Positions 3,040 through 23,270 of a DNA stretch of 24,000 bases are shown here, piece after piece. Source of the DNA: Chitinophagales bacterium. GTDB lineage: Bacteria; Bacteroidota; Bacteroidia; Chitinophagales; Chitinophagaceae. Within the stretch, counting starts at the first letter, position 1; the number at the start of each line of letters is the position of its first letter. The notes below the pieces were generated by a model that had not been told where the DNA came from, did no database searches, and saw nothing but the letters and a program-made list of their open reading frames with translations. A program made the position numbers and the translations under genes. The stretch is from NCBI GenBank assembly GCA_038203525.1, contig JBBRDW010000033.1, forward strand, positions 1 to 24,000, in the 5' to 3' direction.

Positions 3040-3136
3040 AAGAAAACCTTCACCAGCAGACCCGTCATTGTGTGTTATCACCAACGACTTTCGCTTTAAT
3101 CTTCGCTGCGATTAAAGCTCCATAAATAATCAGAAC

Positions 3137-3155
3137 GTACAAGAGTGCGACGCAA
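3137..3155 (+). repeat. 19-bp core repeat GTACAAGAGTGCGACGCAA (exact)
   Basis: Exact 19/19 match, intergenic. It is followed 25 nt later by CCGGGCTAAAAAATATTA (3181-3198). Confidence 0.95.
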
Positions 3156-3453
3156 GAAAAGCTGCACAGCATATCTGCTGCCGGGCTAAAAAATATTACA
3201 CATAATATCTGCTTCCTGTTGCTAAAATACCGCTCCCCTTTAACGATGTGGATTTGCAGCTACATTCAGCAGTTGGTTTTTTGTGCAGAACTTAGATTGG
3301 TGCGGCGCAATTTTATAGCAGCCCTGATAAATGCGGCGCCAAACTCCCGGCTTTACCCAAACACAGGATATATAAAAAATCTTTTGCCAATTTGATTTGA
3401 ATTCGCATGCAACGGCATGAAGATTGCGCTTGTCTGTATAAAGAAAGCAGTTT

Positions 3454-4110
3454 ATGAAACACCAGCACACACCCCCCGAATACATTGACGAGTTTGGCCG
3501 CCCCCAGGAAAGAGCCAATATTTTAATTCACCTGCTGGGTGTTGTGTTTGGTGTATTGGCCATTCCCTTTTTACTTATTAGCGCAAAGCAGGGCGATACC
3601 AGCCACATGATTAGCCTGGGTATTTATGCTTTGTGTTTTTTAATGGTGTTCCTGAGCTCTACACTTTACCACAGCGTGCGGAGGTATAAAGTAAAAATGT
3701 TTCTTAAAAAAGTTGACCGTATAAGTATTTACTTTTTTATTGCGGGCACTTATACGGCGATTATACGGTTTTATCTTTTCGATGCTACCGGTTTTACCTT
3801 GCTGGCGGTTTTATGGACACTGGTTCTGGCCGGTATCTTCTTTGAAATTGTGTTCCCCGATAAATTCAATTTATTTTCTTTACTGGCTTACCTGGTAATG
3901 GGGCTGATCTTTGTATTTGTACCAAGGCAGTTCTTTTCTTCCATGCCCGCAGGTGTTATGGCTTTGGTGCTGGCGGGTGTGGGCCTGTATATATTTGGCG
4001 TAGTATTTTATGTGTGGCAGCGGTGGAGCTATCATCATGCTGCCTGGCATTTGTTCGTGCTGGCCGGGGGTGTTTGCCACTTTGCCGCGCTGCTGCAAAC
4101 AGTAAGTTAG
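3454..4110 (+). CDS. Hemolysin III / PAQR family membrane protein
   Basis: Seven predicted TM segments. Family landmarks present: STLYHS, DRISIYFFIAGTYT, HHAAWHLFVLAGGVCHF. Confidence 0.85.
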   Translation: MKHQHTPPEYIDEFGRPQERANILIHLLGVVFGVLAIPFLLISAKQGDTSHMISLGIYALCFLMVFLSSTLYHSVRRYKVKMFLKKVDRISIYFFIAGTYTAIIRFYLFDATGFTLLAVLWTLVLAGIFFEIVFPDKFNLFSLLAYLVMGLIFVFVPRQFFSSMPAGVMALVLAGVGLYIFGVVFYVWQRWSYHHAAWHLFVLAGGVCHFAALLQTVS

Positions 4111-4290
4111 TTGTACCGTTACCCTTTATTATTTTTATAGAAAACCCGCAATTTGCCTGTTAATATTTTTGTATCAGTCTCCACTACTACTATCAGGTTC
4201 TCGTTGCAGCTTGCCCCGCGCATGGCGCATATGCGGCAAGCTAAGGAATACATTTATTGACCCAACAGCATCGCTACTATTGAGTTTCCG

Positions 4291-4309
4291 TTGCGTCGCA
4301 CTCTTGTAC
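4291..4309 (-). repeat. 19-bp core repeat (exact, reverse orientation TTGCGTCGCACTCTTGTAC)
   Basis: Exact 19/19 match, intergenic, downstream of the hemolysin-III gene. Confidence 0.95.
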
Positions 4310-4503
4310 TTTTGGTTCTCTATGCGACTTTCAGAACTCAGTTGTTTTTTTTCCTTGCAAATGAAAGCGAAGATTATTCGGCAACGCATTAATATTTAAA
4401 ACTATTTACTAAATCTTCATTGCAAGACAACCTAAAACCATTACTGGTAAACACTTTCAGCGATTTTTGTCAAAAATTAGGTTGACGCATAAGCGCCCAT
4501 GGC

Positions 4504-4522
4504 GGTGGTCGCACGCTTGTAC
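4504..4522 (-). repeat. 19-bp core repeat, degenerate copy (14/19)
   Basis: GGTGGTCGCACGCTTGTAC. A weakly complementary partner GCGCAAGAGTTAGCTATGCGGCCAC lies at 4564-4588. Confidence 0.5.
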
Positions 4523-4704
4523 TGTAGTAGATATTTGCGCAATGGTGCATTATTAAGCAATGAGCGCAAGAGTTAGCTATGCGGCCACGGCCTATTATGT
4601 TTTCGATTTAAAGAATGATATAGTTAGATGGCAAATGCGCTGGACAAAAGCAATGCTCTTATTTACTTTTTGTCTTGACACAAAAAAAGGAACAAAAAAG
4701 TCAA

Positions 4705-4734
4705 GAAAGAAAAGATATACAACGCTTTTCTTTC
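4705..4734 (-). terminator. Possible intrinsic terminator downstream of vsr copy 2
   Basis: Perfect 10-bp stem GAAAGAAAAG / CTTTTCTTTC (4705-4714 / 4725-4734) with a 10-nt loop. On the minus strand it is followed by a T-rich tract. The stem is AT/purine-rich, so it is weak. Confidence 0.3.
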
Positions 4735-4841
4735 TTTCGCCCTGATTTTGCTTTTGAACTACTGTGAATTGAGCAATTGTACATTATTGGGCATTGAGCA
4801 CAGGGGTTAATTATGCTGTGGATATTTGCTGTGCTATTATT

Positions 4842-5294
4842 TTACTTCTTTAATCGGCGCACCAGCTTTTGTAGGGTGGCCGCTGCTTTTGCAGGCTTTA
4901 GGTCACACTCCCAAACGATGATAATTTTCCAGCCTTCTTTCTTTAAAGCTTTTACAGCTTTTGCATCATTGTCTTTGTTCATATTTATTTTTTGTACCCA
5001 CCATTCGCTGCTTGTTTGCGGAACTTTAAAATATAAACAGTTGGTATGCCCATGCCAGAAACAGCCGTGTATAAAGATTACGGTTTTATATTTTGGTAAA
5101 ACAATATCTGGTTTGCCGGGTAGTTGCTTTCGCCTTTCTTCTGTAGGAGAGGGGCGGGGGGTGAGGCCGTGCAGTTTATAACGAAAGCCCTGTGCATACA
5201 GAAATTTACGCACCAGCATTTCGGGCTTTGCCTTGGTGCTGCGTATGCGGCTCATATTGTAGCTGCGCTGTTCTTTGGTAGGCACATCGGCCAT
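4842..5294 (-). CDS. vsr: Very-short-patch repair endonuclease (Vsr), copy 2 (paralog of 2072..2524)
   Basis: MADVPTKEQRSYNMSRIRSTKAKPE...LPGKPDIVLPKYKTVIFIHGCFWHGH...VWEC. It is 150 aa, the same length as copy 1, and collinear with it. Confidence 0.92.
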   Translation of the reverse strand: MADVPTKEQRSYNMSRIRSTKAKPEMLVRKFLYAQGFRYKLHGLTPRPSPTEERRKQLPGKPDIVLPKYKTVIFIHGCFWHGHTNCLYFKVPQTSSEWWVQKINMNKDNDAKAVKALKKEGWKIIIVWECDLKPAKAAATLQKLVRRLKK

Positions 5295-5315
5295 CGTACA
5301 AAATAACCGTCTTAA

Positions 5316-5834
5316 CTATTCCTTTCTTTTATAGTGTATAAGCCAGTTGCTTTGCCAGCTAATACCACCGTCGGTTGAGGATTGCCAGCTCCAGTCGAAC
5401 GAGCCGGGCGTAATATGATAGTAAACCATTCTGTTAATCATTTTTCCGGTTCGGCTTATTTGCACAGGTACATTTTTTTCATTTGTTACGAGTATCATGG
5501 AGTCCGCTTTCATACCGCCGGTAAGATAGATAAAGCCACCCTGGCTGTCTACCCATGTTTGTTCCCAGGTTTTATAATTTGTATTGTACACGCTCCAGCT
5601 TTTACCAAAGTAATGGGTATTGGGATCAGTAAAGTTTTCCTGCACCGTACAGTTGCCAAATATTTTTTCAACATGATTGGTTCCGTGCAAAGTATCGCTC
5701 CAGGTAAGGTTCCAGTCGCCTAACCAAAAATTAAACTGAGATGCTTCCGGTAAAGAGCAGGGTGGCTGGTTGTTCTTTTGCGCATAAGAGTATACAAACA
5801 AAAAACTGCCGGCAAAGAGTAGCATAATTTTCAT
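5316..5834 (-). CDS. Secreted hypothetical protein (signal peptide; family not recognised with confidence)
   Basis: N-terminal MKIMLLFAGSFLFVYSYAQ is signal-like. The ORF is a clean 172 aa. It ends 21 nt upstream of the vsr copy 2 start on the same strand. Confidence 0.6.
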   Translation of the reverse strand: MKIMLLFAGSFLFVYSYAQKNNQPPCSLPEASQFNFWLGDWNLTWSDTLHGTNHVEKIFGNCTVQENFTDPNTHYFGKSWSVYNTNYKTWEQTWVDSQGGFIYLTGGMKADSMILVTNEKNVPVQISRTGKMINRMVYYHITPGSFDWSWQSSTDGGISWQSNWLIHYKRKE

Positions 5835-6179
5835 AATAAACTTTTTTGATCAGACTTTAAGGTAGGTTAATTTACTTTTTTATTTCGCCGGATTATTACC
5901 GGCGGCATTTATCAGTGACTGTTTTTTTTAAGTGGTAAAATAATGCGGTTCTGTGCGAAAAAATCTGGAATGGAATGATATAAGCCGGGAAGTTATTATT
6001 TTGTTTACGCCATAGTTAAAGCAAAAAAATTTCACTTCTAACCAAAGCCACAGGGAAGCGCGTGCCGGCGTTTGTTTAGTTTACTGGCACAAAAATGTGT
6101 CTGTTATATAACTGATGACAACCGCGTTAAACATTATCATTGCCAAATCTAAAGCACTAACTTTATATAAAACCTGTGT

Positions 6180-7310
6180 ATGCAACCACTTCCGCTTACT
6201 GTAAAAAGATCTATAGAATTAATGGGCCTGGTATTGGCTGCAGCGATTGTAGTGCAAGGCCAGCAAATCATCATGCCCCTGCTCATGGCTTTTTTTATGA
6301 GCATTGTATTGCTACCCATTTACCGCTTTCTTAAAAAGCATAAAATGCCCGAATTGTTATCCATTTTTCTTTCACTGATGGTCATGATCATTATCATAAG
6401 CCTCATCATTTTTTTTATCAGTTCGCAGATAACGCCGCTTATAAAAGATTTTCCACAGATAAGGGAAAATATTACACGGCATATTAATGATTTAAGCGCA
6501 TGGTTTGGCGAAAGAACCAATATCTCTACAGTAGAACAATCCAAATTTTTAAACGACCAAAGTAATAATTTACTCAATTATGCGGCTAATATTTTAGGCG
6601 GTGCGGCGGGCACATTGGGTACTGCCTTTATCTTTTTTGGCCTGCTGCCAGTGTACACTTTTTTAATGTTGTACTACAAGGTAATCTTAATGCGGTTTGT
6701 GTATATGTGGTTTCCGCAGGAGAGCCATCCACGTGTAAAAGTAGTGGTACAGCAAACGGAAACTATTGTTAAAAGTTATATACTCGGCCTGCTGATACAG
6801 ATCACTTATATCACTATCTTACTGGGAGGTTCGCTCGCACTTTTTGGCATAAAGCACGCCCTGCTCATAGGTATTGTGTTTGGGGTGCTTAACCTTATAC
6901 CCTATATAGGCGCTTTGTTCGGTAATATTATCGGGGTGTTGTTAACCCTCAGTTCATCGCAGGATATTGGGCCGGTGATAACCGTGCTGGTAACCATAGC
7001 CGTGGTTCAGTTCCTCGATAATAATATTTTAATGCCCAGCATCGTGGGCTCTAAAGTAAGGATCAATGCACTGGTTTGTCTTGCCGGTGTCTTTATTGGT
7101 GGTGCACTGGCCGGTATACCCGGCATGTTTCTTTCGCTGCCGCTTATTGCCGTGTTTAAAGTTATATTCGATCATACAGACCGGTTTAAACATTGGGGTA
7201 TTCTTTTTGGTGACGAAATGGAGGCTAAAAAGCCAAACTTAAAAATTTTGAACTGGAAAAAGAATGCCGGACAAAACAGCGTAAAAAAGAAAAAGGAAGA
7301 ACAAGGTTGA
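6180..7310 (+). CDS. AI-2E family transporter (PerM/YhhT-like permease)
   Basis: Polytopic membrane protein of 376 aa. The C-terminal region LNLIPYIGALFGN...FLDNNILMPSIVGSKVRINAL...GIPGMFLSLPLIAV is typical of the family. Confidence 0.85.
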   Translation: MQPLPLTVKRSIELMGLVLAAAIVVQGQQIIMPLLMAFFMSIVLLPIYRFLKKHKMPELLSIFLSLMVMIIIISLIIFFISSQITPLIKDFPQIRENITRHINDLSAWFGERTNISTVEQSKFLNDQSNNLLNYAANILGGAAGTLGTAFIFFGLLPVYTFLMLYYKVILMRFVYMWFPQESHPRVKVVVQQTETIVKSYILGLLIQITYITILLGGSLALFGIKHALLIGIVFGVLNLIPYIGALFGNIIGVLLTLSSSQDIGPVITVLVTIAVVQFLDNNILMPSIVGSKVRINALVCLAGVFIGGALAGIPGMFLSLPLIAVFKVIFDHTDRFKHWGILFGDEMEAKKPNLKILNWKKNAGQNSVKKKKEEQG

Positions 7311-7343
7311 TGTATCCAGCTTTCGAACTTTCTTCAGCTTTGG

Positions 7344-7479
7344 TTGTGTCACTCACTTGTACGTTCAGCACTTTATTCAGCAATTAGCGGTCAGGTATCA
7401 GCAATAACAGCAAGCCGTGTTTCCAAACGCTGACTGATGAAAGCTGAAAGTTATTCTTAAGTACAAGAGTGCGACGCAA
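7344..7479. repeat. Composite A: inverted pair of core repeats (variant arm 7344-7362, exact arm 7461-7479) around a 98-nt self-complementary spacer
   Basis: TTGTGTCACTCACTTGTAC ... GTACAAGAGTGCGACGCAA. The spacer contains complementary blocks (TTCAGC/GCTGAA, CGGTCAG/CTGACTG). Confidence 0.9.
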
Positions 7480-7737
7480 CGATGTTGAATAAAGAACCCA
7501 CGCCTGGCCACAAAAGAAAAAATAAAAGTTAGCCGGGCAGCAAATGCCCGTGCTATAAAAAAATATTAAAACAGATAAACAGGTAGGTTAAACTGCTGGT
7601 TTAAACCATTGATTAAGTTACCTCCAAAATTACTATCCCACGCCTGACTTTGCCACCAATTAAGGCTAATGATTTGATAATTAACGAAAGCAGTTTTTTT
7701 TCGTTTCGCCCACTACAATAAGCATATTGAAGAAAAA

Positions 7738-9316
7738 TTTAGATCAATAAAAATTTTTCGCGGATCACTGGCATCAATTACATTACAGCTATTTATTGCT
7801 TTAGGGATGCTTCATTTTGGGAGCGAGAAGAGCGAATCTATACTTTTTTTATTATGTTTTACAAGGCTCACCTGCATCTTATCAGACGTTTTGCGCAGCG
7901 ATGTTTCGTTGAAAGTGGGCTTCGCTTTGTTCACCTTCTGTAGCACCAAATTCTGCAATGCAAATGCAATATATCATAAACAGATATTACCTTCTATTCT
8001 GCTGTATGTCCAATGAAACATGGGTCTTGTTTGCAAATTCGATTTGAAGGTGCGTAAGCTGTCTTCTATTTTATTTTCGTCTAAGGCATAAGCTTCTTTA
8101 CCATCGGATTTGAAGAACAACCGCGCTGGCTTTTGCTTGAGCAATCCAGGGTTTTCCAATAGCTTTTTGCCTGTTTACCGTTTGTCTTCCCAGTCGTGTT
8201 TATCCTTCTTTGCCCTGTTGGCGGAATAGGTAGCAAAGATTGTTTTGCCCTCCTGATTAATAGTAGGTGTACTTAATAACTACAGCTACATCAACATGAT
8301 TATTGTGTACCCACTCGTGCTTATAATTCGATAAATTAAGCAATGGCGCCTGTATGCTTTGGGTAAGGTTTTCAGCCTTTCACCTATAATAAATTCATAG
8401 CTTTTGCCAGTAGTAATTTGCAGGTTGTTGTTAGAGGGCATACCTCTGTCAGCAACTACAATTATTTTATCAATCTGGTACTGGTTCTGTAAATCATCCA
8501 ACGCTTTTTCAAACGTATGTCTTTCATAAGTATCTCCTTTAAAAATGCAATAGCCAATCGGGTTTTTATCCCTGTTTATTTTCATGCAAAAAAGTATTAA
8601 AGCATTGCCAATTTTACCATTTTTACCAAAACCCATCGGGCGCAGTTCACCTCCTTTTTGTACTTCATGCTCCAGATAAAAAGTAGTTGCAACATAAAAG
8701 ACAACATCTAATTTTTGATTAAATAAAACTCTGCCTGTTGTAAAAATTTGCTGTTGAATGAAAAAGCTGTTATGCTTGCTGCTGGGCTCTTGTAATCGTT
8801 CTAAGCGCATCAGAAAAACGCTATTGTATAAATTAAACTGAAGTTTACTTTTGTTCTCTATTCTTCTAAAAATATCGTGTAAACCATACTGTTGTAAAGC
8901 CTTACTTCAGATTTGCTGATACCCATAATTATACCTGCCAATTTTTTGAAGAGCTTCTTGCAGTAAAGCTTTTATTTGGCCTCCTCCTATTTCAAATAAC
9001 CTAATACCAATAGCTCTAAGCTGCGCCTCCATATAATCATCTACCTTGCCTAAGTGTATAAAATCCGATGCGTTGATTGGCCGCCTGCATTGCGATAGCT
9101 TTCCAGTATTCGCAAAAAAGTTGCTGATGCTTTTTTCTCCACTCTAAGAAATGGCATACTACAACACTACAGGGTACGATAGCAAAAATAAAACAGTGAG
9201 AAAAAATCGGCTCACTGCATTTTTTTGCAAATCAAGTAATACCATTTTTCAGCAATCAGCTTCAGGATATTTCAAAAATGGATGTGTCAAAGTCAAGAAA
9301 AATGTATTGATCTAAA
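7738..9316 (-). mobile_element. IS1634-like (IS4-superfamily DDE) insertion sequence remnant with candidate terminal inverted repeats
   Basis: TTTAGATCAATA at 7738-7749 has its exact complement TATTGATCTAAA at 9305-9316, and adjacent ATTTTTC blocks also match. The pair encloses the transposase fragments. The element is about 1.58 kb. Confidence 0.5.
7974..9157 (-). pseudogene. IS1634-family transposase, broken by frameshifts and stops
   Basis: The N-terminus from complement 9155-9157 reads MPFLRVEKKASATFLRILESYRNAGGQSTHRIL. The frame then shifts near 9055 into LGKVDDYMEAQLRAIGIR. The middle fragment 8286..8810 carries DKIIVVADRGMPSNNNL (DDE region). The C-terminal fragment 7974..8159 carries RPMFHWTYSRIEGNICL. 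Confidence 0.75.
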
Positions 9317-9342
9317 AATCAGCAGCCGGCTAAAATAAAAAA

Positions 9343-9366
9343 GGTCGGTTCATTGCTGAACCAACC
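9343..9366 (-). terminator. Intrinsic terminator of the TonB-dependent receptor gene
   Basis: Hairpin GGTCGGTTCA-TTGC-TGAACCAACC with one G-U pair on the minus-strand transcript. On the minus strand it is followed by TTTTTTATTTT. It lies 29 nt after the stop. Confidence 0.65.
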
Positions 9367-9394
9367 TTTTTAATAGAGGGGAAATATTGATAAC

Positions 9395-12196: not shown

Positions 12197-12455
12197 AACT
12201 TGTTATTAGTTTGGTTCAGAAGCTAAAATATCGAATTTATTGATAAGTCATTTTTTTGTTAAGGGAACAGCCGAAACTACAATCTGAAGTAACCCCATTT
12301 TAATTTGGTTAGTTCGTTATTTTCCAGGTCAGCATTTCTGCTTGGTAGCTATCCATTATTTTACTGATTGTATTGCGATTGCTCTGGCAGCTGCAGTTTT
12401 AGACCAATAAAATACAAGGTTATTAACCCAGCTTTGGTAGTACAATTAAACATTA

Positions 12456-12474
12456 TTGCGTCGCACTCTTGTAC
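12456..12474 (-). repeat. 19-bp core repeat (exact, reverse orientation)
   Basis: Exact 19/19 match in the divergent intergenic region between the TonB receptor and the Rieske gene. It overlaps only the implausible upstream extension of ORF 12469..13695. Confidence 0.95.
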
Positions 12475-12612
12475 AGTTTTTCCACTATTCCGCATGTGCC
12501 AGAGGTAAAACTAATTAACCGGCTTTTATATATTCCGGATGTGGCATTGTATAATAAAGTAGCTACCAGTGCTCCCTTCAAAATAATTAACTTCGGCAAA
12601 ATTGTTTTCCAC

Positions 12613-13695: not shown

Positions 13696-13944
13696 AAAAT
13701 TGATAGTAGCTTTTAGCTGCGTGCGACCAGCTTTGTAGTATGGGTTTTAAGTTGCTGCATAAACATAAACAATAACAATAGCCATCCTCTGGCAGAACGA
13801 AGACCCATCAAAAAATAAATATGGGGCACAAAAATATTCTACTGGTTTACCACTGCACAAGTTTAGCTTTGAACGATTAATAACAAATGAGGGTTTTTTA
13901 TTCCTGCCAGGGCTTAAAAGCCTTCACTCAAAATATCGAAATTC

Positions 13945-14643: not shown

Positions 14644-14724
14644 AGGCAAATAAGTCAATATTAAATTTCATTTTTTCAAAACCATAATAAGTTTTTATTT
14701 TAGCTCCCTCTAAAAACAACACAA

Positions 14725-14928
14725 ATGAGCACTCAGCATTTTGATGACGACAGCTTAAAAAAATTTACACTTTCCGGTTTCCTTGCTTTTGCAGCGGTAT
14801 TCAGCGTATTAATGCTGATGATGCGTTGCCATGGCGATTTTGTTCCCACAACAGAAAATACACACAACACATCCGCAGCAGAAAGCCACGAGACAGAAAA
14901 GCCCGCTAAAACTCCATCGGCAGAGTAG
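14725..14928 (+). CDS. Small hypothetical membrane protein (67 aa)
   Basis: One hydrophobic segment (LSGFLAFAAVFSVLMLMM) followed by a low-complexity tail. No homology recognised. Confidence 0.35.
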   Translation: MSTQHFDDDSLKKFTLSGFLAFAAVFSVLMLMMRCHGDFVPTTENTHNTSAAESHETEKPAKTPSAE

Positions 14929-15090
14929 AATAATTTTACAGGAAACTGTTAAGTGTTTATGCTGCCACAGACTTTGGGTACAATTTATTTGTAATTTATT
15001 TGGTTCAAAAACAAGCTCTTGAACGGAAAGTTTTTTATTGGTAAGGTGAAATTTTTTTGGCCCGGCTACAAATCTTTGTTTAATCTTTTG

Positions 15091-15225
15091 TTGCGTCGCA
15101 CACTTGTACTTTTGGTAATAATGGCGGCAAATTCTGTGCAGTACGTAGCCTGCCGCCGTTTGCTATTTTAAAAGGCTGCTGCACATTGCCCAAAAAAGAA
15201 CAAGGCGTACAAGTGAGTGACACAA
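15091..15225. repeat. Composite C: inverted pair of core repeats (18/19 arm 15091-15109, variant arm 15207-15225) around a 97-nt self-complementary spacer
   Basis: TTGCGTCGCACACTTGTAC ... GTACAAGTGAGTGACACAA. The right arm is the exact reverse complement of the variant arm at 7344-7362. The spacer contains GGCGGCA/TGCCGCC, TGTGCAG/CTGCACA and TTTTGG/CCCAAAA pairs. Confidence 0.9.
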
Positions 15226-15339
15226 CAGGTGCCTAATAGCAGCAATGCAGCCCGGTATAAAATATTTACTGTAGAAATTAAAATCCCGTTCTGAATTTTC
15301 GGAAGAGATTTTTTTCTCTCATGCGCAAATTTCTTTAAG

Positions 15340-16287: not shown

Positions 16288-16353
16288 ACGTGTAAGTGGG
16301 TATTCGCCAACCGGGCGAAAGTAAATAAATTACACAGTTAAAAATTCTAAGTT

Positions 16354-17016
16354 TTGAAGCCATTTATTAAGAGACGTTTAAGCATTACGGATATTTTTTT
16401 GATTCTCGTTAACCTTGTTCCATTATGGGGCGTGTGGTTTAAAGGCTGGAATGCAAAGGAAGTATTTCTTGTGTATTGTTTGGAGAGCGTTATTGCAGGC
16501 GCTTATAACATACTGATGATGTGGATGACCACGTTGGTAAAAAAGAAAGATGAATGGAGCAATGGCGGGGCAACGACAATAGTATCGGGCTACTTTTTTA
16601 TTTTATTTTTCATGGTGCATTATGGTTTTTTTATTTTTATACAGTTAAGTATTTTTTTTAGTGTAGCTGGTTTTGGCATTGCTTTTACCGAATCTCCGGG
16701 TGTTCTGCAGTTCATTATACACCCTATGGATTTACTTTCGCCCGGAACGCAACAATTACTCATCCTTTTTATAGCCAGCTATGGGCTGGTGGTATTAAAA
16801 GATTTTGTTTTTAACGGTGCCTACAAAACGGCGTCTATTGGTGCACTTATGTTTGCTCCTTATGCAAGAATCTTTGTACAGCAGTTTTGTGTAATTATTG
16901 GTTCCTTTTTGCTGGGCTTTAACCTGGGGAGTATATTCATCTTGGTTTTCGTCATCATAAAAATATTCTTCGAGAGTATTGTAGATTTTCAAAAAATGAC
17001 AAAGAAAAAAAGTTAA
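16354..17016 (+). CDS. Polytopic membrane protein of unknown function (possibly DUF6498-like)
   Basis: About 6 hydrophobic segments. The track start is a TTG, so the start is uncertain. The family assignment comes from memory of N-terminal LVNLVPLWGV..GW patterns only. Confidence 0.55.
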   Translation: MKPFIKRRLSITDIFLILVNLVPLWGVWFKGWNAKEVFLVYCLESVIAGAYNILMMWMTTLVKKKDEWSNGGATTIVSGYFFILFFMVHYGFFIFIQLSIFFSVAGFGIAFTESPGVLQFIIHPMDLLSPGTQQLLILFIASYGLVVLKDFVFNGAYKTASIGALMFAPYARIFVQQFCVIIGSFLLGFNLGSIFILVFVIIKIFFESIVDFQKMTKKKS

Positions 17017-17209
17017 TTGTCGCCAGGTGCAAAGTAATTTTTTAGCTCAGCTGTATAACATCAAAGATGCTTATACTGTAGCTTGCCCGCCGATTCGGCA
17101 GCCGCAAGCTCATAAGTTCAGCACTTAACTAAACAGTAAGGAACGAACATGGAATAATTACCTGCTGATCATCCAGGGCCTCTTTGCCTTGCTGCCTTTA
17201 GTTAACAAA

Positions 17210-17228
17210 GTACAAGCGTGCGACGCAA
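17210..17228 (+). repeat. 19-bp core repeat (18/19: GTACAAGCGTGCGACGCAA)
   Basis: One mismatch. It is followed by AAGCCCGATAAGAATTACCTAAGCCCGGCTAATAAAAATTATTTA (17230-17275). A possible decayed partner ATGCTTATACTGTAG lies at 17067-17081. Confidence 0.9.
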
Positions 17229-17335
17229 CGAAGCCCGATAAGAATTACCTAAGCCCGGCTAATAAAAATTATTTATTAAGTTACCTTGCTATCATTTATC
17301 TTCAAACTGTGAACTAAATACTGTAAAGGAAAACT

Positions 17336-18175
17336 ATGGCTGTAAAACTTATTGCCGACAGTGGCTCTACCAAATGTGAGTGGTGCCTGCTGGTTGACGG
17401 TAAAAGGAAAAAAATAATAACACAAGGCATTAGCCCGTATTTTCTCAATGAAGAGCAGGTGGTTAGCATTCTGCAAAAAGAACTCCTTGGCAAAATAAAA
17501 AACGTTGTGGTTGACGAGATTTTTTACTATGGTACAGGCCTCGCCAATCCCGAAAACGGCAGGTTTATAAAACGTGCTTTAAAGAAGGTTTTTCCGGCTG
17601 CGAAAATTGCAGCAGAAATAGATTTGCTTGCTGCGGCAAGAGCTGTTTGTGGTCACCATAAAGGTATAGCCTGCATATTGGGCACCGGCTCAAATTCCTG
17701 TTATTTCAACGGCAGGAAGATTGTGAAAAATAGTCCCGGCCTTGGCTACGTGCTTGGCGACGAAGGCAGCGGTGCTTATCTGGGCAAAAAAGTAATACAG
17801 CATTTTCTTTACAATACATTTGATGAGGACCTTTTGCTGCGCTTCAATAAACAGTTTAATACCAATGCTAATGAAATACTGGAACATGTTTATAAAATGC
17901 CGCAACCAAACCGCTACTTGGCTTCGTTCGCTATTTTTCTCGCTGAGAACCGCGACCATTTTATGATAGAAAATATTATTGAAGACGGCCTGAATGATTT
18001 CTTCTTTACCCATTTGAACAAGTACCGTGAAAGCTGGTTATATCCAATTAGTTTTGTTGGCAGTGTGGCATATGGTTTTAGAGATGTGCTTAAGAATTTA
18101 TGCAACACTTACGAGCTGGAACTTGGCAATGTTTTAAAGCAGCCAATGGATGGGCTGATCGCTTACCACCAATAA
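17336..18175 (+). CDS. BadF/BadG/BcrA/BcrD-type ATPase; N-acetylglucosamine / N-acetylmuramic acid kinase-like (MurK-like)
   Basis: N-terminal ADSGSTKCEW phosphate-1 motif, ILGTGSN, and GYVLGDEGSGAYLG. It sits immediately upstream of murQ (6-nt gap). Confidence 0.8.
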   Translation: MAVKLIADSGSTKCEWCLLVDGKRKKIITQGISPYFLNEEQVVSILQKELLGKIKNVVVDEIFYYGTGLANPENGRFIKRALKKVFPAAKIAAEIDLLAAARAVCGHHKGIACILGTGSNSCYFNGRKIVKNSPGLGYVLGDEGSGAYLGKKVIQHFLYNTFDEDLLLRFNKQFNTNANEILEHVYKMPQPNRYLASFAIFLAENRDHFMIENIIEDGLNDFFFTHLNKYRESWLYPISFVGSVAYGFRDVLKNLCNTYELELGNVLKQPMDGLIAYHQ

Positions 18176-18180
18176 AATTT

Positions 18181-18996
18181 ATGAGTGAATTTATCCGCAT
18201 TACTGAGCAGCCATCTCAATACAGGCACTTGGAAAAAATGAGTATAAAAGAGATTGTTACCAATCTTAACAATGAAGACAAAACGGTTGCTTACGCCATA
18301 GAAAAAAAGTTACCAGCCATTGAAAAACTAATTACAGCGATAGCAGATAAAATGCTGGCAGGCGGTAGGTTATTTTATGTTGGCGCAGGTACCAGCGGCA
18401 GGCTTGGTATATTGGATGCAAGTGAGTGCCCGCCTACTTATGGTGTTCCTTTTGGTTTGGTTACGGGCATCATAGCCGGCGGCGAAACTGCCATAATAAA
18501 ATCCGTGGAAGATGCCGAAGATAATACCTTGCAGGGATGGCTCGATTTGCAGCAGCATAGTATTTGCGACAAAGATTTTGTAATAGGTATTGCCGCCAGC
18601 GGTACCACGCCATATGTTATCGGCGCACTGCAGCATTGTAGAGAAAATAGTGTGGAAACCGGTTGCATAACCAGCAATGAAGGCAGCCCGCTTGCGGCTG
18701 TGGCTGATCATAAAATTGAAGTGGTAGTTGGGCCGGAAGTTGTTACAGGAAGTTCCCGCATGAAGAGTGGCACCATGCAGAAAATGATCTTAAACATGAT
18801 CTCTACAACCGTAATGATCCAGTTGGGAAGGGTAGAGGATAACCGCATGGTAAACATGCAACTCAGCAACGAAAAACTGGTAGACCGCGGCGTTAAAATG
18901 TTAATGGAAAAAATAAACACCAACGATTATGAAGCTGCAAAAAAATTACTCCTTCAATACGGCACAGTAAAAAAAGCAACCGATGCAGTTAAGTGA
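18181..18996 (+). CDS. murQ: N-acetylmuramic acid 6-phosphate etherase
   Basis: GGRLFYVGAGTSGRLGILDASECPPTYGV and VVTGSSRMKSGTMQKMILNM match E. coli MurQ landmarks. I moved the start to ATG 18181 (MSEFIRIT) instead of the overlapping track start at 18100. Confidence 0.92.
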   Translation: MSEFIRITEQPSQYRHLEKMSIKEIVTNLNNEDKTVAYAIEKKLPAIEKLITAIADKMLAGGRLFYVGAGTSGRLGILDASECPPTYGVPFGLVTGIIAGGETAIIKSVEDAEDNTLQGWLDLQQHSICDKDFVIGIAASGTTPYVIGALQHCRENSVETGCITSNEGSPLAAVADHKIEVVVGPEVVTGSSRMKSGTMQKMILNMISTTVMIQLGRVEDNRMVNMQLSNEKLVDRGVKMLMEKINTNDYEAAKKLLLQYGTVKKATDAVK

Positions 18997-19043
18997 TAAA
19001 TACATTTTATGAACCGGGCAATAGAACATGAATGAGGCTTTAC

Positions 19044-19062
19044 TTGCGTCGCACTCTTGTAC
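19044..19062 (-). repeat. 19-bp core repeat (exact, reverse orientation)
   Basis: Exact 19/19 match. The upstream flank 18997-19043 is the reverse-complement homolog of the flank following the 20899 copy (AAGCCTCATTCAT..GCCCGG..AAAAT). Confidence 0.95.
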
Positions 19063-19139
19063 TTTCTCAATAAAATTCAGCCATGACGTACCAGTGAAAC
19101 AAATCGAAAATCTAAGATCTAAAAATCGCAAATCAAATC

Positions 19140-19541
19140 ATGGAATTAAGAAACAGTCGTTTTAAAATAAACATCAAAGTTGAGCAGCAGCACCTCGACG
19201 ATGTAAACCATGTAAACAATGTGATCTATGTGCAATGGATGGAAAAAATTGCACGTCAGCACTGGAATACTTATGCATCTGAAGAAATGCAGCAACAGGT
19301 TCTGTGGATGATCAAACGACATGAAATAGATTATATAACGCAGGCTTTTCTAAACGATGAATTAGAAATGCACACTTGGACCGGCGATTACACCAATGTA
19401 ACCTGGAAACGCCATTACGAAATAATAAGACTGGCAGATAATAAAAAGATAATCAGTGCAGCAAGTATCTGGATACCACTCGATAGAAAAACCCAGCGGC
19501 CAAAGCGAATTGATGATTCGTTACTATTAATGTTTGCATAA
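19140..19541 (+). CDS. Hotdog-fold acyl-CoA thioesterase (4HBT/YbgC-like)
   Basis: 133 aa. VEQQHLDDVNHVNNVIYVQWMEKIARQHW fits the catalytic-Asp N-terminal pattern of 4HBT thioesterases. Confidence 0.75.
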   Translation: MELRNSRFKINIKVEQQHLDDVNHVNNVIYVQWMEKIARQHWNTYASEEMQQQVLWMIKRHEIDYITQAFLNDELEMHTWTGDYTNVTWKRHYEIIRLADNKKIISAASIWIPLDRKTQRPKRIDDSLLLMFA

Positions 19542-19543
19542 GC

Positions 19544-20158
19544 TTATAAGGCAAAAGAAACGTCTGCAACCTGAGTTACGCATACTCCGGCACCCTTCAA
19601 TGCCTTTTCTGCCTGCAGCACGTGGCGATAATTATGCGCAATTAAAAACATAAACACATCACCCAGTTTCAGCTTTATAAATTTTGCAATCGAAATCGGA
19701 ACTTTGGTTTTCTCAAGGTCTATTGTTGCCGCATCCTCCAGCAACTGCAACAGCCTTTCTTGCTGATCTATAAAAGTTGCAATTACTTTATCGCTGTCCT
19801 CATCATTCAAAGAAATATAAGCTTTCATCGCCTTCATTTTTTTAGAAGGATTTCCTTCTGCATTTGTCGTCATCATTTTAGTAAAATAATTGCCTATTAA
19901 ACCAGATTGAAATTGTTCAGTTGCAGTGCTGTTATTCTTTTTGGCTTTTAAAATAGCGGCTTCAATTGCAGGCAGGTAATATTCACTATACCTGTTTAAA
20001 TGAACAACGCATTGTTTCGCACTCCAGGAATTTACAGTAGGTTGTTGTGAAAATTTTTCCAGCAGAATCATTTGCCATTCCTGTATGGCTTTGTTCAATA
20101 AATTTTCAGTTTGCTCCATCAGGTTTTCGATTAATTGTTTTGATTGGTAAGTTGGCAT
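19544..20158 (-). CDS. DinB-superfamily (DinB_2-like four-helix-bundle) protein
   Basis: W..KQCVVHL near the N-terminus and HNYRHVLQAE near the C-terminus fit the conserved His triad spacing of DinB-family proteins. Confidence 0.65.
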   Translation of the reverse strand: MPTYQSKQLIENLMEQTENLLNKAIQEWQMILLEKFSQQPTVNSWSAKQCVVHLNRYSEYYLPAIEAAILKAKKNNSTATEQFQSGLIGNYFTKMMTTNAEGNPSKKMKAMKAYISLNDEDSDKVIATFIDQQERLLQLLEDAATIDLEKTKVPISIAKFIKLKLGDVFMFLIAHNYRHVLQAEKALKGAGVCVTQVADVSFAL

Positions 20159-20201
20159 GATGAATAGTTTTATAAAGCAAAGCTGCTGACTTCTAAAAAA
20201 T

Positions 20202-20228
20202 AAAATCTTGGTCTACACCAAGATTTTT
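20202..20228 (-). terminator. Intrinsic terminator downstream of the Crp/Fnr gene (bidirectional-looking)
   Basis: Perfect 11-bp stem AAAATCTTGGT / ACCAAGATTTT with loop CTACA. An A6 run lies on one side and T-runs on the other. It lies 10 nt after the stop of the minus-strand gene. Confidence 0.6.
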
Positions 20229-20237
20229 GAAAAGCAA

Positions 20238-20822
20238 TTACAAACGAACTGTTCCTAGCAACTTACTGAAAGTAGTAGCATCAATTCCCAAATAAGAAGC
20301 AAGATATTTATGCGGTATCAATTGCAGCACATGCGGGCTGCGCTTTAATAATGTGCGGAATTTTTCTTCTGCCGAAAAACATTGAAGTTCAATTTGTCTT
20401 TCCAAAACACCAGCCAAAGCAAAACTGGATGCTTTTAGAATGAGCTTTTCAATATTTCTGTGTTTGTTCATGAGTTCATTTACCTGCTGGTAAGTTGTGC
20501 GCAGAAATGCACTGGCAGTAAGCGTTTCAAAATAATACTTCGATGGCTGCTGTGTAAGAAATGAATCCGCCACACCAGAGAAAGAATAGGGATAGGTAAA
20601 AACAAGCGTTGCTTCTTTATCGTTTTCGTGAAGATAAAAGGCACGTTGCACACCTTCGGTTATAAAGTATAAATGCTTTTCTATTTCACCCGCCGCTGTA
20701 AGCAACGTTTTTCTTTTTGCTGTTTGTATTTGCCAAATAGATGCAAAATCATCCCATTCATTTTGTTCGAGTGGCAGAATGGAGTAGGTGAATTTGTACA
20801 GTTGTTTAATTGCTTCTTGCAT
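20238..20822 (-). CDS. Crp/Fnr family transcriptional regulator
   Basis: 194 aa with a cNMP-binding-like N-terminal domain and a C-terminal HTH (HKYLASYLGIDATTFSKL). Confidence 0.85.
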   Translation of the reverse strand: MQEAIKQLYKFTYSILPLEQNEWDDFASIWQIQTAKRKTLLTAAGEIEKHLYFITEGVQRAFYLHENDKEATLVFTYPYSFSGVADSFLTQQPSKYYFETLTASAFLRTTYQQVNELMNKHRNIEKLILKASSFALAGVLERQIELQCFSAEEKFRTLLKRSPHVLQLIPHKYLASYLGIDATTFSKLLGTVRL

Positions 20823-20898
20823 ACGCTAAAGTATCAATTTACAAACATAACACGAGTTGTTTTACCCGCTGCGATAAAAGCCCAATATTCCGCTGAAC

Positions 20899-20917
20899 GT
20901 ACAAGAGTGCGACGCAA
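20899..20917 (+). repeat. 19-bp core repeat (exact)
   Basis: Exact 19/19 match in the divergent region between crp-like and dinB. It is followed by CGGAAGCCTCATTCATATTCCCAAGCCCGGCACAAAATATC (20918-20958). Confidence 0.95.
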
Positions 20918-20979
20918 CGGAAGCCTCATTCATATTCCCAAGCCCGGCACAAAATATCTTTTCTAACTTAGCTGCATCA

Positions 20980-22155
20980 ATGAATAAGCCGCAACGATAT
21001 ATAGCTCATTTTGACCTGGATTCTTTTTTTGTGAGTGTGGAAGTGTTGAACGACCCATCGCTCAAAGATAAGCCGGTACTAGTTGGCGGTAGCGCAGAAC
21101 GCGGCGTGGTGGCGGCTTGCAGCTATGCGGCGCGAAAGTTTGGTATTCATTCTGCCATGCCCATGAAGAAAGCGATGCAGCTTTGTCCGCATGCAATTGT
21201 CGTGCGTGGTACCCGTGGAGAATACAGCCGGTTTTCGCGCTGGGTTACCGAAATTATTGCAGCTAAAGCACCGCTGTTTGAAAAGGCCAGCATCGATGAA
21301 TTTTATATTGACCTTACGGGCATGGATAAATATTTTGATGTGTTTCAATGGACAATTGACCTGCGGCAGGAAATAATTGATAAAACACAGTTACCCATTT
21401 CATTTGCCCTTGCTACCAATAAAATGATTGCGAAGATTGCTACGGATGAAGCCAAACCCAATGGCTATATTTTTATACAGCCAGGCAGGGAGAGAGAATT
21501 TTTGGCGCCGTTACCGGTGAATAAAATTCCGGGTGTGGGCGGGCAAACTTTTATAACGCTAAAGGAAATGGGCATTAATCTTATTGGCGATATAAATAAA
21601 CACAGTGTTGAAGAACTGGAGAAAAAATTAGGCAAATGGGGCGTTGATTTGTGGAGCAAATCGTATGGCCTGCATTTTAATGAAGTGCATCCTTATCACC
21701 AAGCAAAATCTATTTCCACGGAAAATACTTTTGAGGAGAATAAGACCGACGTGGAATTTTTACTGAGTGAACTGGTGCGCATGACAGAGAAAATTGCTTT
21801 TGAACTGCGGCAGGATGAAAAGCTTGCAGGTTGCATTGCTGTAAAAATACGTTATCCCGATTTTGAAACTACGTCCAGGCAAACGACTATTAACTATACT
21901 TTTCGGGACGATGAGCTTATACCCGCAGCCATGAATCTGTTTCATAAACTCTACCGAAAAGGAAATCCCATACGCTTGCTGGGTGTACGTTTGAGCGAAT
22001 TAACCAATGAAGCCGTGCAAGGGAGTTTGTTCGATGATGGCATTAAGAAGACCAATCTTTATAAAGCAATAGACGCTGTAAAAATTAAATTTGGAAAAAG
22101 CTTGTTACAGAAAGCAAGAACCGTTAAGAAAGGGGAATCGGGAAATGAAGAATGA
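20980..22155 (+). CDS. dinB: DNA polymerase IV (Y-family)
   Basis: IAHFDLDSFFVSVE (catalytic DxD..FF), SIDEFYIDLTG, and AKIATDEAKPNG are Y-family landmarks. Confidence 0.92.
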   Translation: MNKPQRYIAHFDLDSFFVSVEVLNDPSLKDKPVLVGGSAERGVVAACSYAARKFGIHSAMPMKKAMQLCPHAIVVRGTRGEYSRFSRWVTEIIAAKAPLFEKASIDEFYIDLTGMDKYFDVFQWTIDLRQEIIDKTQLPISFALATNKMIAKIATDEAKPNGYIFIQPGREREFLAPLPVNKIPGVGGQTFITLKEMGINLIGDINKHSVEELEKKLGKWGVDLWSKSYGLHFNEVHPYHQAKSISTENTFEENKTDVEFLLSELVRMTEKIAFELRQDEKLAGCIAVKIRYPDFETTSRQTTINYTFRDDELIPAAMNLFHKLYRKGNPIRLLGVRLSELTNEAVQGSLFDDGIKKTNLYKAIDAVKIKFGKSLLQKARTVKKGESGNEE

Positions 22156-22254
22156 AAAATGAAGAGCTTAAATGCAACAAAGCAATAAACTGAAAACTAA
22201 CAACTGTAAACGCTAAGCATAAAAAATTAGTCCACTTATTTTGTAGGAAACTAA

Positions 22255-22262
22255 TATATTTG
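22255..22262 (+). promoter_or_regulatory. Candidate Bacteroidota -7 promoter box TATATTTG upstream of the peroxiredoxin gene
   Basis: Matches TAnnTTTG, 19 nt before ATG 22282. No well-spaced -33 TTTG is seen. Confidence 0.3.
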
Positions 22263-22281
22263 TTAGCCAAAACAAATATAT

Positions 22282-22920
22282 ATGGGTTTACGATTAGGCG
22301 ATGTTGCACCAAATTTTAAAGCAACCACCACAGCAGGCGACATAGACTTTTACGAGTACCTGGCTGCAGGCTGGGGAATTTTGTTTTCGCATCCGGCGGA
22401 TTTTACACCTGTATGTACAACAGAACTTGGCAAAACAGCTTTGCTAAAGGAAGAATTTGCAAAACGAAATGTAAAAGTGCTTGCAGTTAGTATTGATCCG
22501 CTAGATAAGCACAACAGCTGGCTGAACGATATCAATGAAACCCAAAATGTAACCGTTGGCTTTCCGCTCATTGCAGATGAAGACCGAACAGTTGCAACCT
22601 TATACGATATGATTCATCCCAATGCTTCTTTAACGGCTACCGTACGTTCATTATTTATAATTGGGCCAGACAAACTGGTAAAACTCATGATCACTTATCC
22701 TGCCTCAACCGGCAGAAATTTCATCGAAGTTTTGCGGGTAGTAGATTCTCTGCAGTTAACTTCAAACTACAGCGTAGCAACGCCTGCCGATTGGAAAGCA
22801 GGTGAAGATTGTATAGTAGTTCCAGCTGTAAGTACCGAAGATGCGATTAAAAAGTTTCCCAAAGGTGTTAAGGTGGTAAAGCCTTATTTGCGCTATACCC
22901 CGCAGCCAAATATCGATTAG
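22282..22920 (+). CDS. 1-Cys peroxiredoxin (Prx6-like)
   Basis: GDVAPNF...WGILFSHPADFTPVCTTELG contains the peroxidatic Cys motif PVCTTE. The 212-aa length fits 1-Cys Prx. Confidence 0.9.
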   Translation: MGLRLGDVAPNFKATTTAGDIDFYEYLAAGWGILFSHPADFTPVCTTELGKTALLKEEFAKRNVKVLAVSIDPLDKHNSWLNDINETQNVTVGFPLIADEDRTVATLYDMIHPNASLTATVRSLFIIGPDKLVKLMITYPASTGRNFIEVLRVVDSLQLTSNYSVATPADWKAGEDCIVVPAVSTEDAIKKFPKGVKVVKPYLRYTPQPNID

Positions 22921-22944
22921 TTTTTCATGTGTATTCTTAGTTTT

Positions 22945-22977
22945 AACCCCGGTGAAATTAGGCATCGGGGTTTTTTT
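22945..22977 (+). terminator. Intrinsic terminator after the peroxiredoxin gene
   Basis: CCCCG (22947-22951) pairs with CGGGG (22966-22970), followed by T7. The loop is long (14 nt), so confidence is moderate. Confidence 0.5.
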
Positions 22978-23012
22978 ATGGGCCGGGCAGCCGTACCCTG
23001 TGGCAACGTTCC

Positions 23013-23166
23013 TTGCGTCGCACTCTTGTACTTTGGGGAAGTATAGCAGCAAGTTCACGTGTTCAACAGTTCACGAGTTAACTACGCCGTTTACATTTAA
23101 AAGCCCGTAAACCTTTGAACTTGTGAACTGCTTCAACTTATTCTTAAGTACAAGAGTGCGACGCAA
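23013..23166. repeat. Composite B: inverted pair of exact core repeats (23013-23031 and 23148-23166) around a 116-nt self-complementary spacer
   Basis: TTGCGTCGCACTCTTGTAC ... GTACAAGAGTGCGACGCAA, both 19/19. The spacer pairs AGTTCACGTGTTCAACAGTT with AACCTTTGAACTTGTGAACT, and GTTTAC with GTAAAC. Confidence 0.95.
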
Positions 23167-23270
23167 CCAGGCCGCCATAAAAAGATTGGCTGGGATACTA
23201 AAAAATTGTCTTTTATGGTAGTTTATCGTTTTATTAGATATTCGGGTTTACATGTTACTAAGCTTTTAGA

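Follow-up and report, generated by a model that had tools for sequence, protein, structure and literature searches.

The window analysed here is a stretch of 24,000 nucleotides (positions 1 to 24,000 of contig JBBRDW010000033.1, assembly GCA_038203525.1) from a Chitinophagales bacterium of the family Chitinophagaceae. It encodes HlyIII, Vsr, an AI-2E transporter, a TonB-dependent receptor, a Rieske oxygenase, an M23 peptidase, an asparaginase, a DUF6498 protein, a BadF-like kinase, a MurQ-like SIS protein, a thioesterase, a DinB_2 protein and a cNMP-binding regulator, all of these gene calls being borne out by Pfam. The names Pol IV (dinB), peroxiredoxin and M16 peptidase rest on the calls of an earlier, sequence-only reading of the window and on the translations, not on Pfam. 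The regions between these genes harbour an interspersed repeat organised around the 19-nt core GTACAAGAGTGCGACGCAA, which the sequence-only reading had described and had linked to the boundaries between transcription units. The structure, distribution and probable origin of this repeat are the subject of the present analysis.

Copies in the window were identified with the 19-mer at one mismatch or less, in comparison with shuffled sequence, and with a profile hidden Markov model (HMM; nhmmer) built from 171 copies. The 19-mer occurs 10 times, the shuffles giving 0 expected, and the variant cores at 7344(-) and 15207(+), with the sequence GTACAAGTGAGTGACACAA, are genuine members of the family. 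The profile recognises 12 full-length units of 36-64 bits (0 expected) distributed across nine intergenic regions (Table 1). All 12 units are intergenic and in every case the end bearing a run of A residues, referred to here as the tail, is directed toward the flanking gene. The arrangement that had been noticed earlier, with genes bracketed by a plus-strand core and a minus-strand core whose outer ends face the genes, is therefore present.

The further statement that composites sit at almost every boundary is too strong: about 9 of the 16 boundaries are occupied, and true head-to-head composites are confined to three regions (7344/7461, 15091/15207 and 23013/23148), the other six having a single unit. 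Boundaries with no unit are 5835-6179 (divergent), 8811-9394, 14644-14724, 16288-16353, 20159-20237 and 22156-22281. Of the two degenerate copies suspected at 4504 and 4564, the first corresponds to a partial decayed unit lying on the strand of the 4291 unit, and is thus not its head-to-head partner. At ~4564, and likewise at the suspected decayed copies at ~13717 and ~13855, the HMM detects nothing, and there is no support beyond a 9-nt match to GCGTGCGAC. The decayed arm proposed at ~17067 is represented by a weak match alone.

Table 1. Repeat units and remnants in the window (positions refer to the window)
Unit	Core	Span	Strand	Context	Evidence
Single unit, type A	3137-3155	3111..3198	+	tail toward hlyIII (start 3454)	exact core; nhmmer 59.3 bits
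Single unit, type A	4291-4309	4248..4333	-	tail toward hlyIII 3' end (stop 4110)	exact core; nhmmer 55.8 bits
Partial decayed unit, core remnant GTACAAGCGTGCGACCACC	4504-4522	4508..4536	-	strand as 4291	nhmmer E 8e-4, 13.8 bits
Composite 1 left arm, type B (GTACAAGTGAGTGACACAA)	7344-7362	7304..7387	-	tail overlaps AI-2E transporter stop codon (7308-7310)	nhmmer 40.9 bits
Composite 1 right arm, type A	7461-7479	7437..7515	+		nhmmer 41.1 bits
Single unit, type A	12456-12474	12418..12499	-	between TonB-dependent receptor and Rieske oxygenase	core match, HMM
Composite 2 left arm, type A	15091-15109	15049..15132	-		core match, HMM
Composite 2 right arm, type B	15207-15225	15183..15268	+	tail toward asparaginase stop (15340)	
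Possible tail remnant, weak		17036..17070	-	head-to-head placement relative to 17210	nhmmer E 0.5 only
Single unit, type A (C at position 8)	17210-17228	17187..17272	+	upstream of BadF-like kinase and murQ	
Single unit, type A	19044-19062	19003..19086	-	tail abuts murQ stop (18996)	
Single unit, type A	20899-20917	20874..20961	+	62 nt upstream of dinB (Pol IV) ATG	
Composite 3 left arm, type A	23013-23031	22971..23056	-		core match, HMM
Composite 3 right arm, type A	23148-23166	23124..23206	+	tail toward M16 peptidase (start 23295)	core match, HMM

The anatomy of the unit has been derived from a core-anchored alignment of copies from many genomes. An architecture of fixed spacing recurs in 171 copies from about 70 genomes, and homology of this kind can have originated by copying alone. 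Conservation extends from about -22 to +58 relative to the core, and the recognisable unit is of about 85 nt. The head GCTGAATA at -19 precedes the core, GCTTAATAG starts 6 nt after it (ATAG at +9/10), and GCCGG and the A-run are located 22-24 nt and 30-36 nt after the core, respectively. Nearly all the information resides in the core itself, the consensus of which is GTACAAG-N-G(T/A)-G(C/T)GAC(G/A)C-AA with position 8 alone free. The left side of the core (GTACAAG) is asymmetric and the right side is palindromic, with TGCGnCGCA in type A and GTGnCAC in type B. The two types, ..GT-GCGACGC-AA (A, about 170 copies) and ..GA-GTGACAC-AA (B, about 30), are discrete, as no single-change intermediate occurs among ~197 copies, and the changes that distinguish them inside the palindrome are symmetric. 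A hairpin with a stem of 3 bp and a loop of one nucleotide is impossible, and we therefore infer from this symmetry a double-stranded protein site rather than base pairing. In several units of the window the A-run is followed by short AT-only palindromes such as ATAAAATGTATTTAT and TAATAAAAATTATTTATTA (3185-3215, 17255-17280 and 19003-19020), which are absent from the family-wide consensus.

A scan for exact matches to the core, with one genome per species, has identified it in at least 108 genome blocks, and among the matches listed all belong to Chitinophagaceae or to unclassified Bacteroidota metagenome-assembled genomes (MAGs). The genera among these listed matches are Segetibacter, Ferruginibacter, Flavisolibacter, Foetidibacter, Limnovirga, Lacibacter, Pinibacter, Puia, Hydrotalea and Paracnuella, and the nearest among them is a MAG about 75% identical to the window in coding DNA, the genome of the window itself being absent from these matches. 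The core is also found in 32 IMG/VR stretches, and collections of plasmid and phage records gave no match to the element. One of the viral contigs (IMGVR_UViG_3300020047_016721, referred to as L130) is a genuine tailed (pro)phage that encodes an integrase, a large terminase, and portal, capsid and sheath proteins. Between 2440 and 7100 of this contig units flank the large terminase gene and another follows the portal gene, and the element contains the ends of the integrase and terminase reading frames. In the viral contigs units occupy 63-130-nt gaps in one-directional gene arrays (21 units in sense and 18 in antisense orientation), the adjacent reading frames extend into both element ends, and related phages keep units at matching positions. 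In several MAG and viral contigs units lie within about 100 nt of the ends (L147 109-127, L151 60-78 and L046 1-19), which fits a repeat that breaks short-read assemblies or, alternatively, a marking of prophage ends.

For the pooled loci gene positions were taken from a crude longest-ORF caller (ORF, open reading frame), and distances to gene starts are approximate. As many as 194 of 208 units (93%) lie outside the called ORFs, though such ORFs cover 84% of the sequence; a few copies placed within ORFs are due to over-extended ORFs (L130 4440 and 7053). This exclusion from coding DNA bears on the notion that the repeat is a DNA uptake or packaging signal, that is, a family-wide tag favouring the uptake or transduction of self DNA. 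A GC-rich core followed by AT-rich tracts, present family-wide in both orientations and in two 'dialects', and the occurrence of units beside terL in phages would suit such a tag. The known uptake sequences (DUS/USS), however, are short motifs arising by point mutation and are common within genes too, whereas the homology of the present unit over 85 nt implies insertion and not point mutation with drive. Gene-ward polarity and the head-to-head pairing described below are also foreign to the uptake model, which is considered extremely improbable.

In the pooled loci the tail is closer to a gene than the head in 101 cases against 44 (p = 2e-6). Snug 3' ends, in which TTTTTATG..CCGGC begins immediately after the stop codon, are seen in many cases, and at snug 5' ends the ATG lies 5-8 nt past the A-run. 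The tail is directed toward gene starts in 86 cases and toward gene ends in 98 (p = 0.42), in agreement with the earlier view that neither a promoter nor a terminator would by itself describe the element. Among gaps of 120-300 nt, 21% of the divergent ones are occupied as against 55% of the co-directional and convergent ones (p = 4e-4). Within co-directional gaps there is no preference for either strand relative to the genes, in chromosomes (47 v 40) or in phages (21 v 18). The lack of strand preference, the lack of a conserved fold and the symmetric core types together argue that the element is read at the level of DNA rather than RNA.

The arrangement of neighbouring units follows strict rules. 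Head-to-head placement applies to 19 of the 20 pairs less than 300 nt apart (p = 6e-11), the remaining pair being in tandem and no pair tail-to-tail, and the degenerate partners recognised beside apparent singletons occupy the head-to-head position in 16 instances and another position in none. About two thirds of the units have no recognisable partner. Adjacent units alternate in orientation (83 v 16). Type B comprises 15% of the units, and 12 of the 19 head-to-head pairs combine A with B where 25% would be expected (p = 6e-4); the A/B pairs are spaced by 43-163 nt and the A/A pairs by 98-205 nt. The preference for A/B avoids a perfect long palindrome.

The bracketing seen in the window follows from two of these rules, the tail pointing at the nearest gene and close pairs being head-to-head, and needs no reference to transcription units. 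That no copy separates co-transcribed genes is correct for the window but trivial, the gaps concerned being of 2-6 nt, and it fails in other genomes. Elsewhere units fill 63-160-nt gaps between co-directional genes, including the gap between a phage portal gene and the next gene within a structural module, and the proposed link with transcription-unit boundaries is unsupported. Such placement is of the kind, copies inside operons, that the sequence-only reading had itself named as refuting the link.

The genes enclosed by close +/- pairs are housekeeping genes, namely atpD (ATP synthase beta), guaB (IMP dehydrogenase), sucD (succinyl-CoA synthetase), trpE (anthranilate synthase) and hutU (urocanase). 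Gene cassettes and composite transposons have been rejected on this ground. Integron cassettes are mobile accessory genes with recombination sites between them and an accompanying integrase, whereas the bracketed genes here are housekeeping and syntenic with relatives lacking units. Inspection of the translations in about 1.2 Mb of loci revealed no transposase-like gene, which could represent an autonomous parent, among those bracketed by close +/- pairs.

Signals of transcription have been looked for in and around the units. The TAnnTTTG part of the Bacteroidota sigma-A promoter (TTG...TAnnTTTG, -33/-7) is absent from the unit body, except that 10 of 184 units show it on the reverse strand, at the core's 5' edge (TACTTTTG). 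Where the distance from tail to ATG is large enough, the motif lies in this interval in 18 of 63 cases; in the snug cases it does so in 0 of 23, and the snug genes must therefore be transcribed through the unit. A generic sigma-70 scan gave matches no more frequent than in shuffled sequence. With the -33/-7 motif not in the unit body, a promoter role has been rejected. In the terminator scan none of the 19-nt cores was matched, and the only unit-associated matches are the terminator of the peroxiredoxin gene (22945-22972), the T-run of which merges with the A-run of the 23013 unit, and a weak hairpin at 7534-7550 in the extended tail of the 7461 unit. An intrinsic terminator is likewise rejected, no hairpin with a U-run belonging to the unit. 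Those 3' ends of the window that have no unit (TonB receptor and Crp-like gene) possess canonical terminators, and murQ and AI-2E, whose 3' ends carry a unit, lack a terminator.

Transcript-end hairpins or cruciforms were among the roles suggested by the sequence-only reading. RNAalifold applied to 171 units gives no consensus pairs, and the folding of single units compared with shuffles yields mean z values of -0.5 (sense) and +0.2 (antisense). No match at the gathering score or at E <= 1 was obtained with Rfam 15 for the whole window, and on this result along with the absence of a fold in 171 units a structured RNA has been rejected. Among the composites, the A/A pair 22971-23206 folds with z = -6.5 and two A/B pairs with z of -1.6 and -2.9. 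Because A/B is the preferred pairing and weakens the stem, hairpin formation appears to be avoided rather than selected.

An explanation at the RNA level would regard composites as hairpins at transcript ends (acting as stabilisers, RNase III sites or terminators) and would have a '+' unit of the 5' untranslated region (UTR) pair with a '-' unit of the 3' UTR of one mRNA, the A-rich tail serving as a translation start region. The strong fold of the A/A composite is in line with it, as is the fact that many units must be transcribed, the ATG being so close to the A-run that a promoter has no space and stop codons abutting the tail; bracketing pairs would also provide 19 bp of complementarity between 5' and 3' ends. 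Most units are however single and unfolded (z about 0), with about two thirds partnerless, paired units favour mismatched A/B arms, orientation shows no bias relative to transcription, Rfam gave no match and the stem in the core is sterically impossible. We regard this explanation as very unlikely, and the hairpin role proposed earlier has not been sustained.

A site with and without the element has been identified in phages. At the integrase-terminase junction the related phage contig L131 reads TAA-AAATAA-ATG and has no element, whereas L130, L152 and L158 contain 57-59 extra nucleotides at the same junction. The extra sequence starts with 7 nt that precede the core and continues for 33 nt beyond it as far as GGCTC, and it disrupts neither reading frame. 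The junction is a clean filled-versus-empty site, and the comparison shows that the A-run and the head-like GC.AATA..TAA are at least partly part of the target. The search for empty sites covered all 158 loci, and only this junction qualified. Two other candidates were rejected, one being a replaced intergenic region and the other a spurious core match within a phage gene that is conserved.

Comparison with relatives reveals turnover and decay of the chromosomal units. Relatives recognised through MurQ (55-85% identical, the closest metagenome relative with 85% identity being a partial match) are mostly without a recognisable unit around murK-murQ or dinB; one such locus (L117) has no unit in 20.8 kb and another (L110) has one unit in 17.9 kb. 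The murK-murQ and dinB genes can therefore do without the units, the density of which varies with the lineage. In the closest relative (L115 and L122, about 77% nucleotide identity) the orthologue of the unit upstream of dinB (20899; L122 2380) is intact with a core identical at 19/19 positions, the orthologue of the unit downstream of murQ (19044) in L122 has lost the GTAC end of the core, and that of the unit upstream of murK (17210) in L115 is badly decayed. The 12456 unit has a counterpart of equal place and orientation in the MAG of about 75% identity (L105 3725). Of the three roles offered by the sequence-only reading, that of a selfish element is best supported, by the one empty-versus-filled site, by decayed orthologues and by the differing density among relatives.

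On these grounds the repeat is, with some reserve, best interpreted as a non-autonomous insertion element specific to Chitinophagaceae, with their phages as further carriers, the core of which is a protein recognition site; the element is not a transcription-unit marker. Such an element would spread by copy-and-paste, the inserted piece being about 57-60 nt, in which the 19-bp core is preceded by a few bases and followed by about 33 nt that end with GCCGG. The target would be AT-rich, roughly GCTNAATA(stop)^(C)ATAAAA, and sequences of this kind are met just after the stop codons and just before the A-rich start regions of Bacteroidota genes. Insertion there would explain why a unit of about 85 nt is recognised and why its A-run touches the gene end. 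The core would be the double-stranded site of a trans-acting protein, either a mobilising enzyme or a host protein, and this would account for an intact core in a drifting remainder. The element would be tolerated only where no gene or promoter is broken. Insertion beside stop and start regions and these limits of tolerance would together produce the polarity, the head-to-head rule, the alternation and the bracketing; the '+ genes -' pattern would then be a matter of geometry in a genome with most gaps of 100 nt or more colonised.

Several observations weigh against this interpretation. The only clean empty site lies in a phage and could formally be a precise deletion. Target-site duplication was not detected (likeness of head, middle and tail within versus between units, z -0.2 to 1.3) and none is visible at the filled phage site, though old copies could have lost one. 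Terminal inverted repeats are lacking, head and tail being unrelated in the inverted sense. Copies within one genome are about 50-78% identical outside the core, with no sign of a recent burst. No mobilising enzyme has been found, and the one transposase-like gene in the vicinity, a Y1_Tnp/IS200-like (RAYT-like) gene at 1498-1944(+) of the window, has no homologue, by tblastn, in 126 other loci (108 genome blocks and 18 metagenome loci, about 0.9 Mb). The core is identical at 18-19 of 19 positions in five of seven orthologous pairs from genomes about 75% identical in coding DNA, the flanks of which are unalignable; this points to per-copy selection or gene conversion and is not predicted for a purely selfish element. 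The depletion in divergent gaps and the persistence in compact phage genomes are as compatible with a useful role as with tolerance.

A useful role is the essence of an explanation in which the host selects the unit as a polar boundary element, with a core-binding protein acting toward the tail-side gene, either as a roadblock or insulator or as an anchor of a topological or nucleoid domain. This would account for a core that is invariant across genera and at the above orthologous sites while the flanks are beyond alignment, for the gene-ward polarity and the head-to-head close pairs, for the start and stop codons that abut a hard element edge, for the under-representation in divergent promoter gaps, for the retention at equal positions in related phages, and for the 3' ends in the window having either a terminator (TonB receptor, Crp-like gene) or a unit (murQ, AI-2E). 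On the other hand, the equivalent genes of relatives manage without units, some orthologous copies are simply decaying, the transcripts with snug leaders must cross the unit so that incoming transcription is not blocked there, units are present inside the one-directional structural gene arrays of phages, and no protein partner has been found. We therefore hold this explanation to be unlikely. The nucleoid-protein or insulator role also mentioned in the sequence-only reading may exist, although nothing in the data demands it. A bolder version, to which we attach just as small a chance, would take the invariant core as the target of a sequence-specific protein that occurs throughout Chitinophagaceae in two specificities, A and B, and the units not as mere parasites but as portable polar 'gene-end modules'. 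If true, these would be orientation-dependent roadblocks insulating genes, or universal linkers for swaps of operons and phage modules, adopted by phages likewise.

Recombination provides another possible function, the core being a crossover or attachment sequence (attB/attP-like, for temperate phages) of a site-specific recombinase, or a linker for the exchange of operons and phage modules, and the copies being both scars and substrates. In three related phage contigs a unit is located immediately 3' of the gene of a tyrosine recombinase of XerC/D size (L130 1596-2480), the usual place of attP, and the core holds a short palindrome with two symmetric variants. Two otherwise unrelated phages share a patch of 552 nt that is 99% identical before the core and 81% from the core on, and in the small set of syntenic pairs blocks of shared genes terminate at units. 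The patch (L150 1894-2270 and L129 3960-4290) spans a unit together with the small gene before it and the beginning of the gene after it, with 98-100% identity up to the core, and this step in identity suggests a recombination junction at the element. The mosaic junction is however a single anecdote, and the coincidence with breaks of synteny is expected anyway for units at most gene boundaries. There are also several units per phage genome and not one, the 4-1-4 palindrome is far smaller than the known core sites of tyrosine recombinases, and no recombinase is linked to the chromosomal copies. This function is accordingly viewed as quite unlikely.

Dispersed short repeats at gene boundaries are familiar from the dRS3 repeats of Neisseria, which are targets of integrating elements, and from the PeSL cassettes of T4-type phages, which act as module linkers. 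The present unit resembles them in its position beside a phage recombinase gene and in the one phage mosaic junction at the core. The evidence for this resemblance consists of one junction and one gene neighbourhood, both in phages and not at chromosomal units.

Interspersed intergenic repeats have been well studied in Proteobacteria, where they include the repetitive extragenic palindromic (REP) sequences and bacterial interspersed mosaic elements (BIMEs), REPINs, enterobacterial repetitive intergenic consensus (ERIC) sequences and Correia elements. Like the REP/BIME/REPIN systems of Enterobacteriaceae and Pseudomonas, the Chitinophagaceae repeat is family-wide, of high copy number and intergenic, and consists of singletons and inverted dimers that are mostly head-to-head and of mixed types; it is also scarce in divergent promoter regions, mosaic in make-up, old and persistent. 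In the GTAG/CGTC class of REPs, which are likewise family-wide, intergenic and rare in divergent promoter gaps, head-to-head inverted dimers predominate, dimers of mixed type are preferred, and an unpaired tetranucleotide flanks the stem (PMC3733652). The REP is however a stem-loop of 20-40 nt, whereas the present unit has no stem-loop and its sole palindrome TGCGaCGCA (4-1-4) cannot form a hairpin. In place of the GTAG/CGTC tag, the core starts with GTAC and has CGTC only within the reverse strand of the palindrome, and neither flanks a stem. Mixed dimers of REPs build a hairpin, whereas A/B pairing lowers the hairpin potential. A REPIN is a replicating inverted doublet with a long hairpin; doublets in head-to-head placement, and decayed partners in this placement alone, are seen here too, but the insertion documented here is a single unit, two thirds of the units have no partner and A/B arms weaken the hairpin.

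REPs are moreover tied to a RAYT gene flanked by REPs, whereas the Y1_Tnp gene in the window is flanked by different hairpin repeats. A RAYT link has been rejected, as this gene has repeats of its own and no counterpart was detected near other copies in the tblastn search of the 126 loci. The hairpin-rich repeats around the gene (window 989-2050) are unrelated to the 19-mer. They include 100-nt direct copies at 989-1088 and 1129-1228 (95% identical), an inverted partial copy at 1308-1348 and further small GC hairpins at 1945-2050, and the region looks like a classical REP-RAYT cluster.

ERIC (IRU) and Correia elements are similar to the unit in being short (about 100-150 bp) intergenic insertions found in either orientation across related genera, often transcribed with the neighbouring genes and at times supplying stop codons or gene ends. 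They are imperfect palindromes with terminal inverted repeats, Correia elements having a TA duplication as well, whereas the unit is asymmetric, with neither terminal inverted repeats nor a detectable duplication, and its conservation is located in the internal 19-mer rather than at the termini. The same holds for miniature inverted-repeat transposable elements, whose terminal inverted repeats and target duplication have no match in the unit and for which no parent element was found in about 1.2 Mb of loci. The mini-elements of the IS200/IS605 family (PATEs) are comparable in being small, without terminal inverted repeats or target duplication, and set in one orientation by a short target motif. 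PATEs nevertheless depend on subterminal hairpins and are biased toward one replication strand, whereas in the unit no hairpin is predicted and the orientation alternates (83 v 16) within a few kb.

In the full-text literature, searched by sequence string and by topic, no description of such a repeat has been found for Chitinophagaceae. Unusual traits of the repeat family are a unit that is not palindromic, a 19-mer that is identical across genera while the remainder drifts, two covarying core types that prefer pairing with each other, and the presence in phages as well as chromosomes. The repeat could be used to learn whether bacterial repeats that endure for long do so through replication of their own or because the host selects them. 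The core is a candidate handle on a DNA-binding or mobilising protein, and the interest would be higher if a dedicated protein is recruited to it. Practical uses include primers for strain typing, an explanation of assembly breaks in MAGs and caution in the prediction of operons and terminators in Chitinophagaceae.

Other features of the window have also been identified. The region 1-788 contains a fragment of a DNA methyltransferase-like gene and a helix-turn-helix gene. Two paralogous Vsr genes, each of 150 aa and on the minus strand, are located at 2072-2524 and 4842-5294 and share a 300-nt stretch with 83% identity. The non-coding region 4658-4770 (about 113 nt) is 86% identical to a contig of Foetidibacter luteolus (L043 7046-7160) in unalignable surroundings and carries the inverted repeat TCTTGAC...GTCAAGA; it has no Rfam match and a 21-mer from it was not found in the other loci. 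An insertion sequence remnant at 7974-8810, between the 7461 unit and the TonB-dependent receptor gene, is comprised of broken minus-strand ORFs resembling the C-terminal part of an IS1634/IS4-type transposase, a 174-aa piece of which has no Pfam match. Several units in other Chitinophagaceae genomes are adjoined by a different GC-rich palindromic repeat (..TCATTGCAAGCAGCGCGAAGCAA.., ..ATTGCTTCGTTCCTCGCAATGACGAG..; L014 ~7000-7090, L036 ~3290-3340 and L010 ~200-250), which may constitute a second interspersed repeat family.

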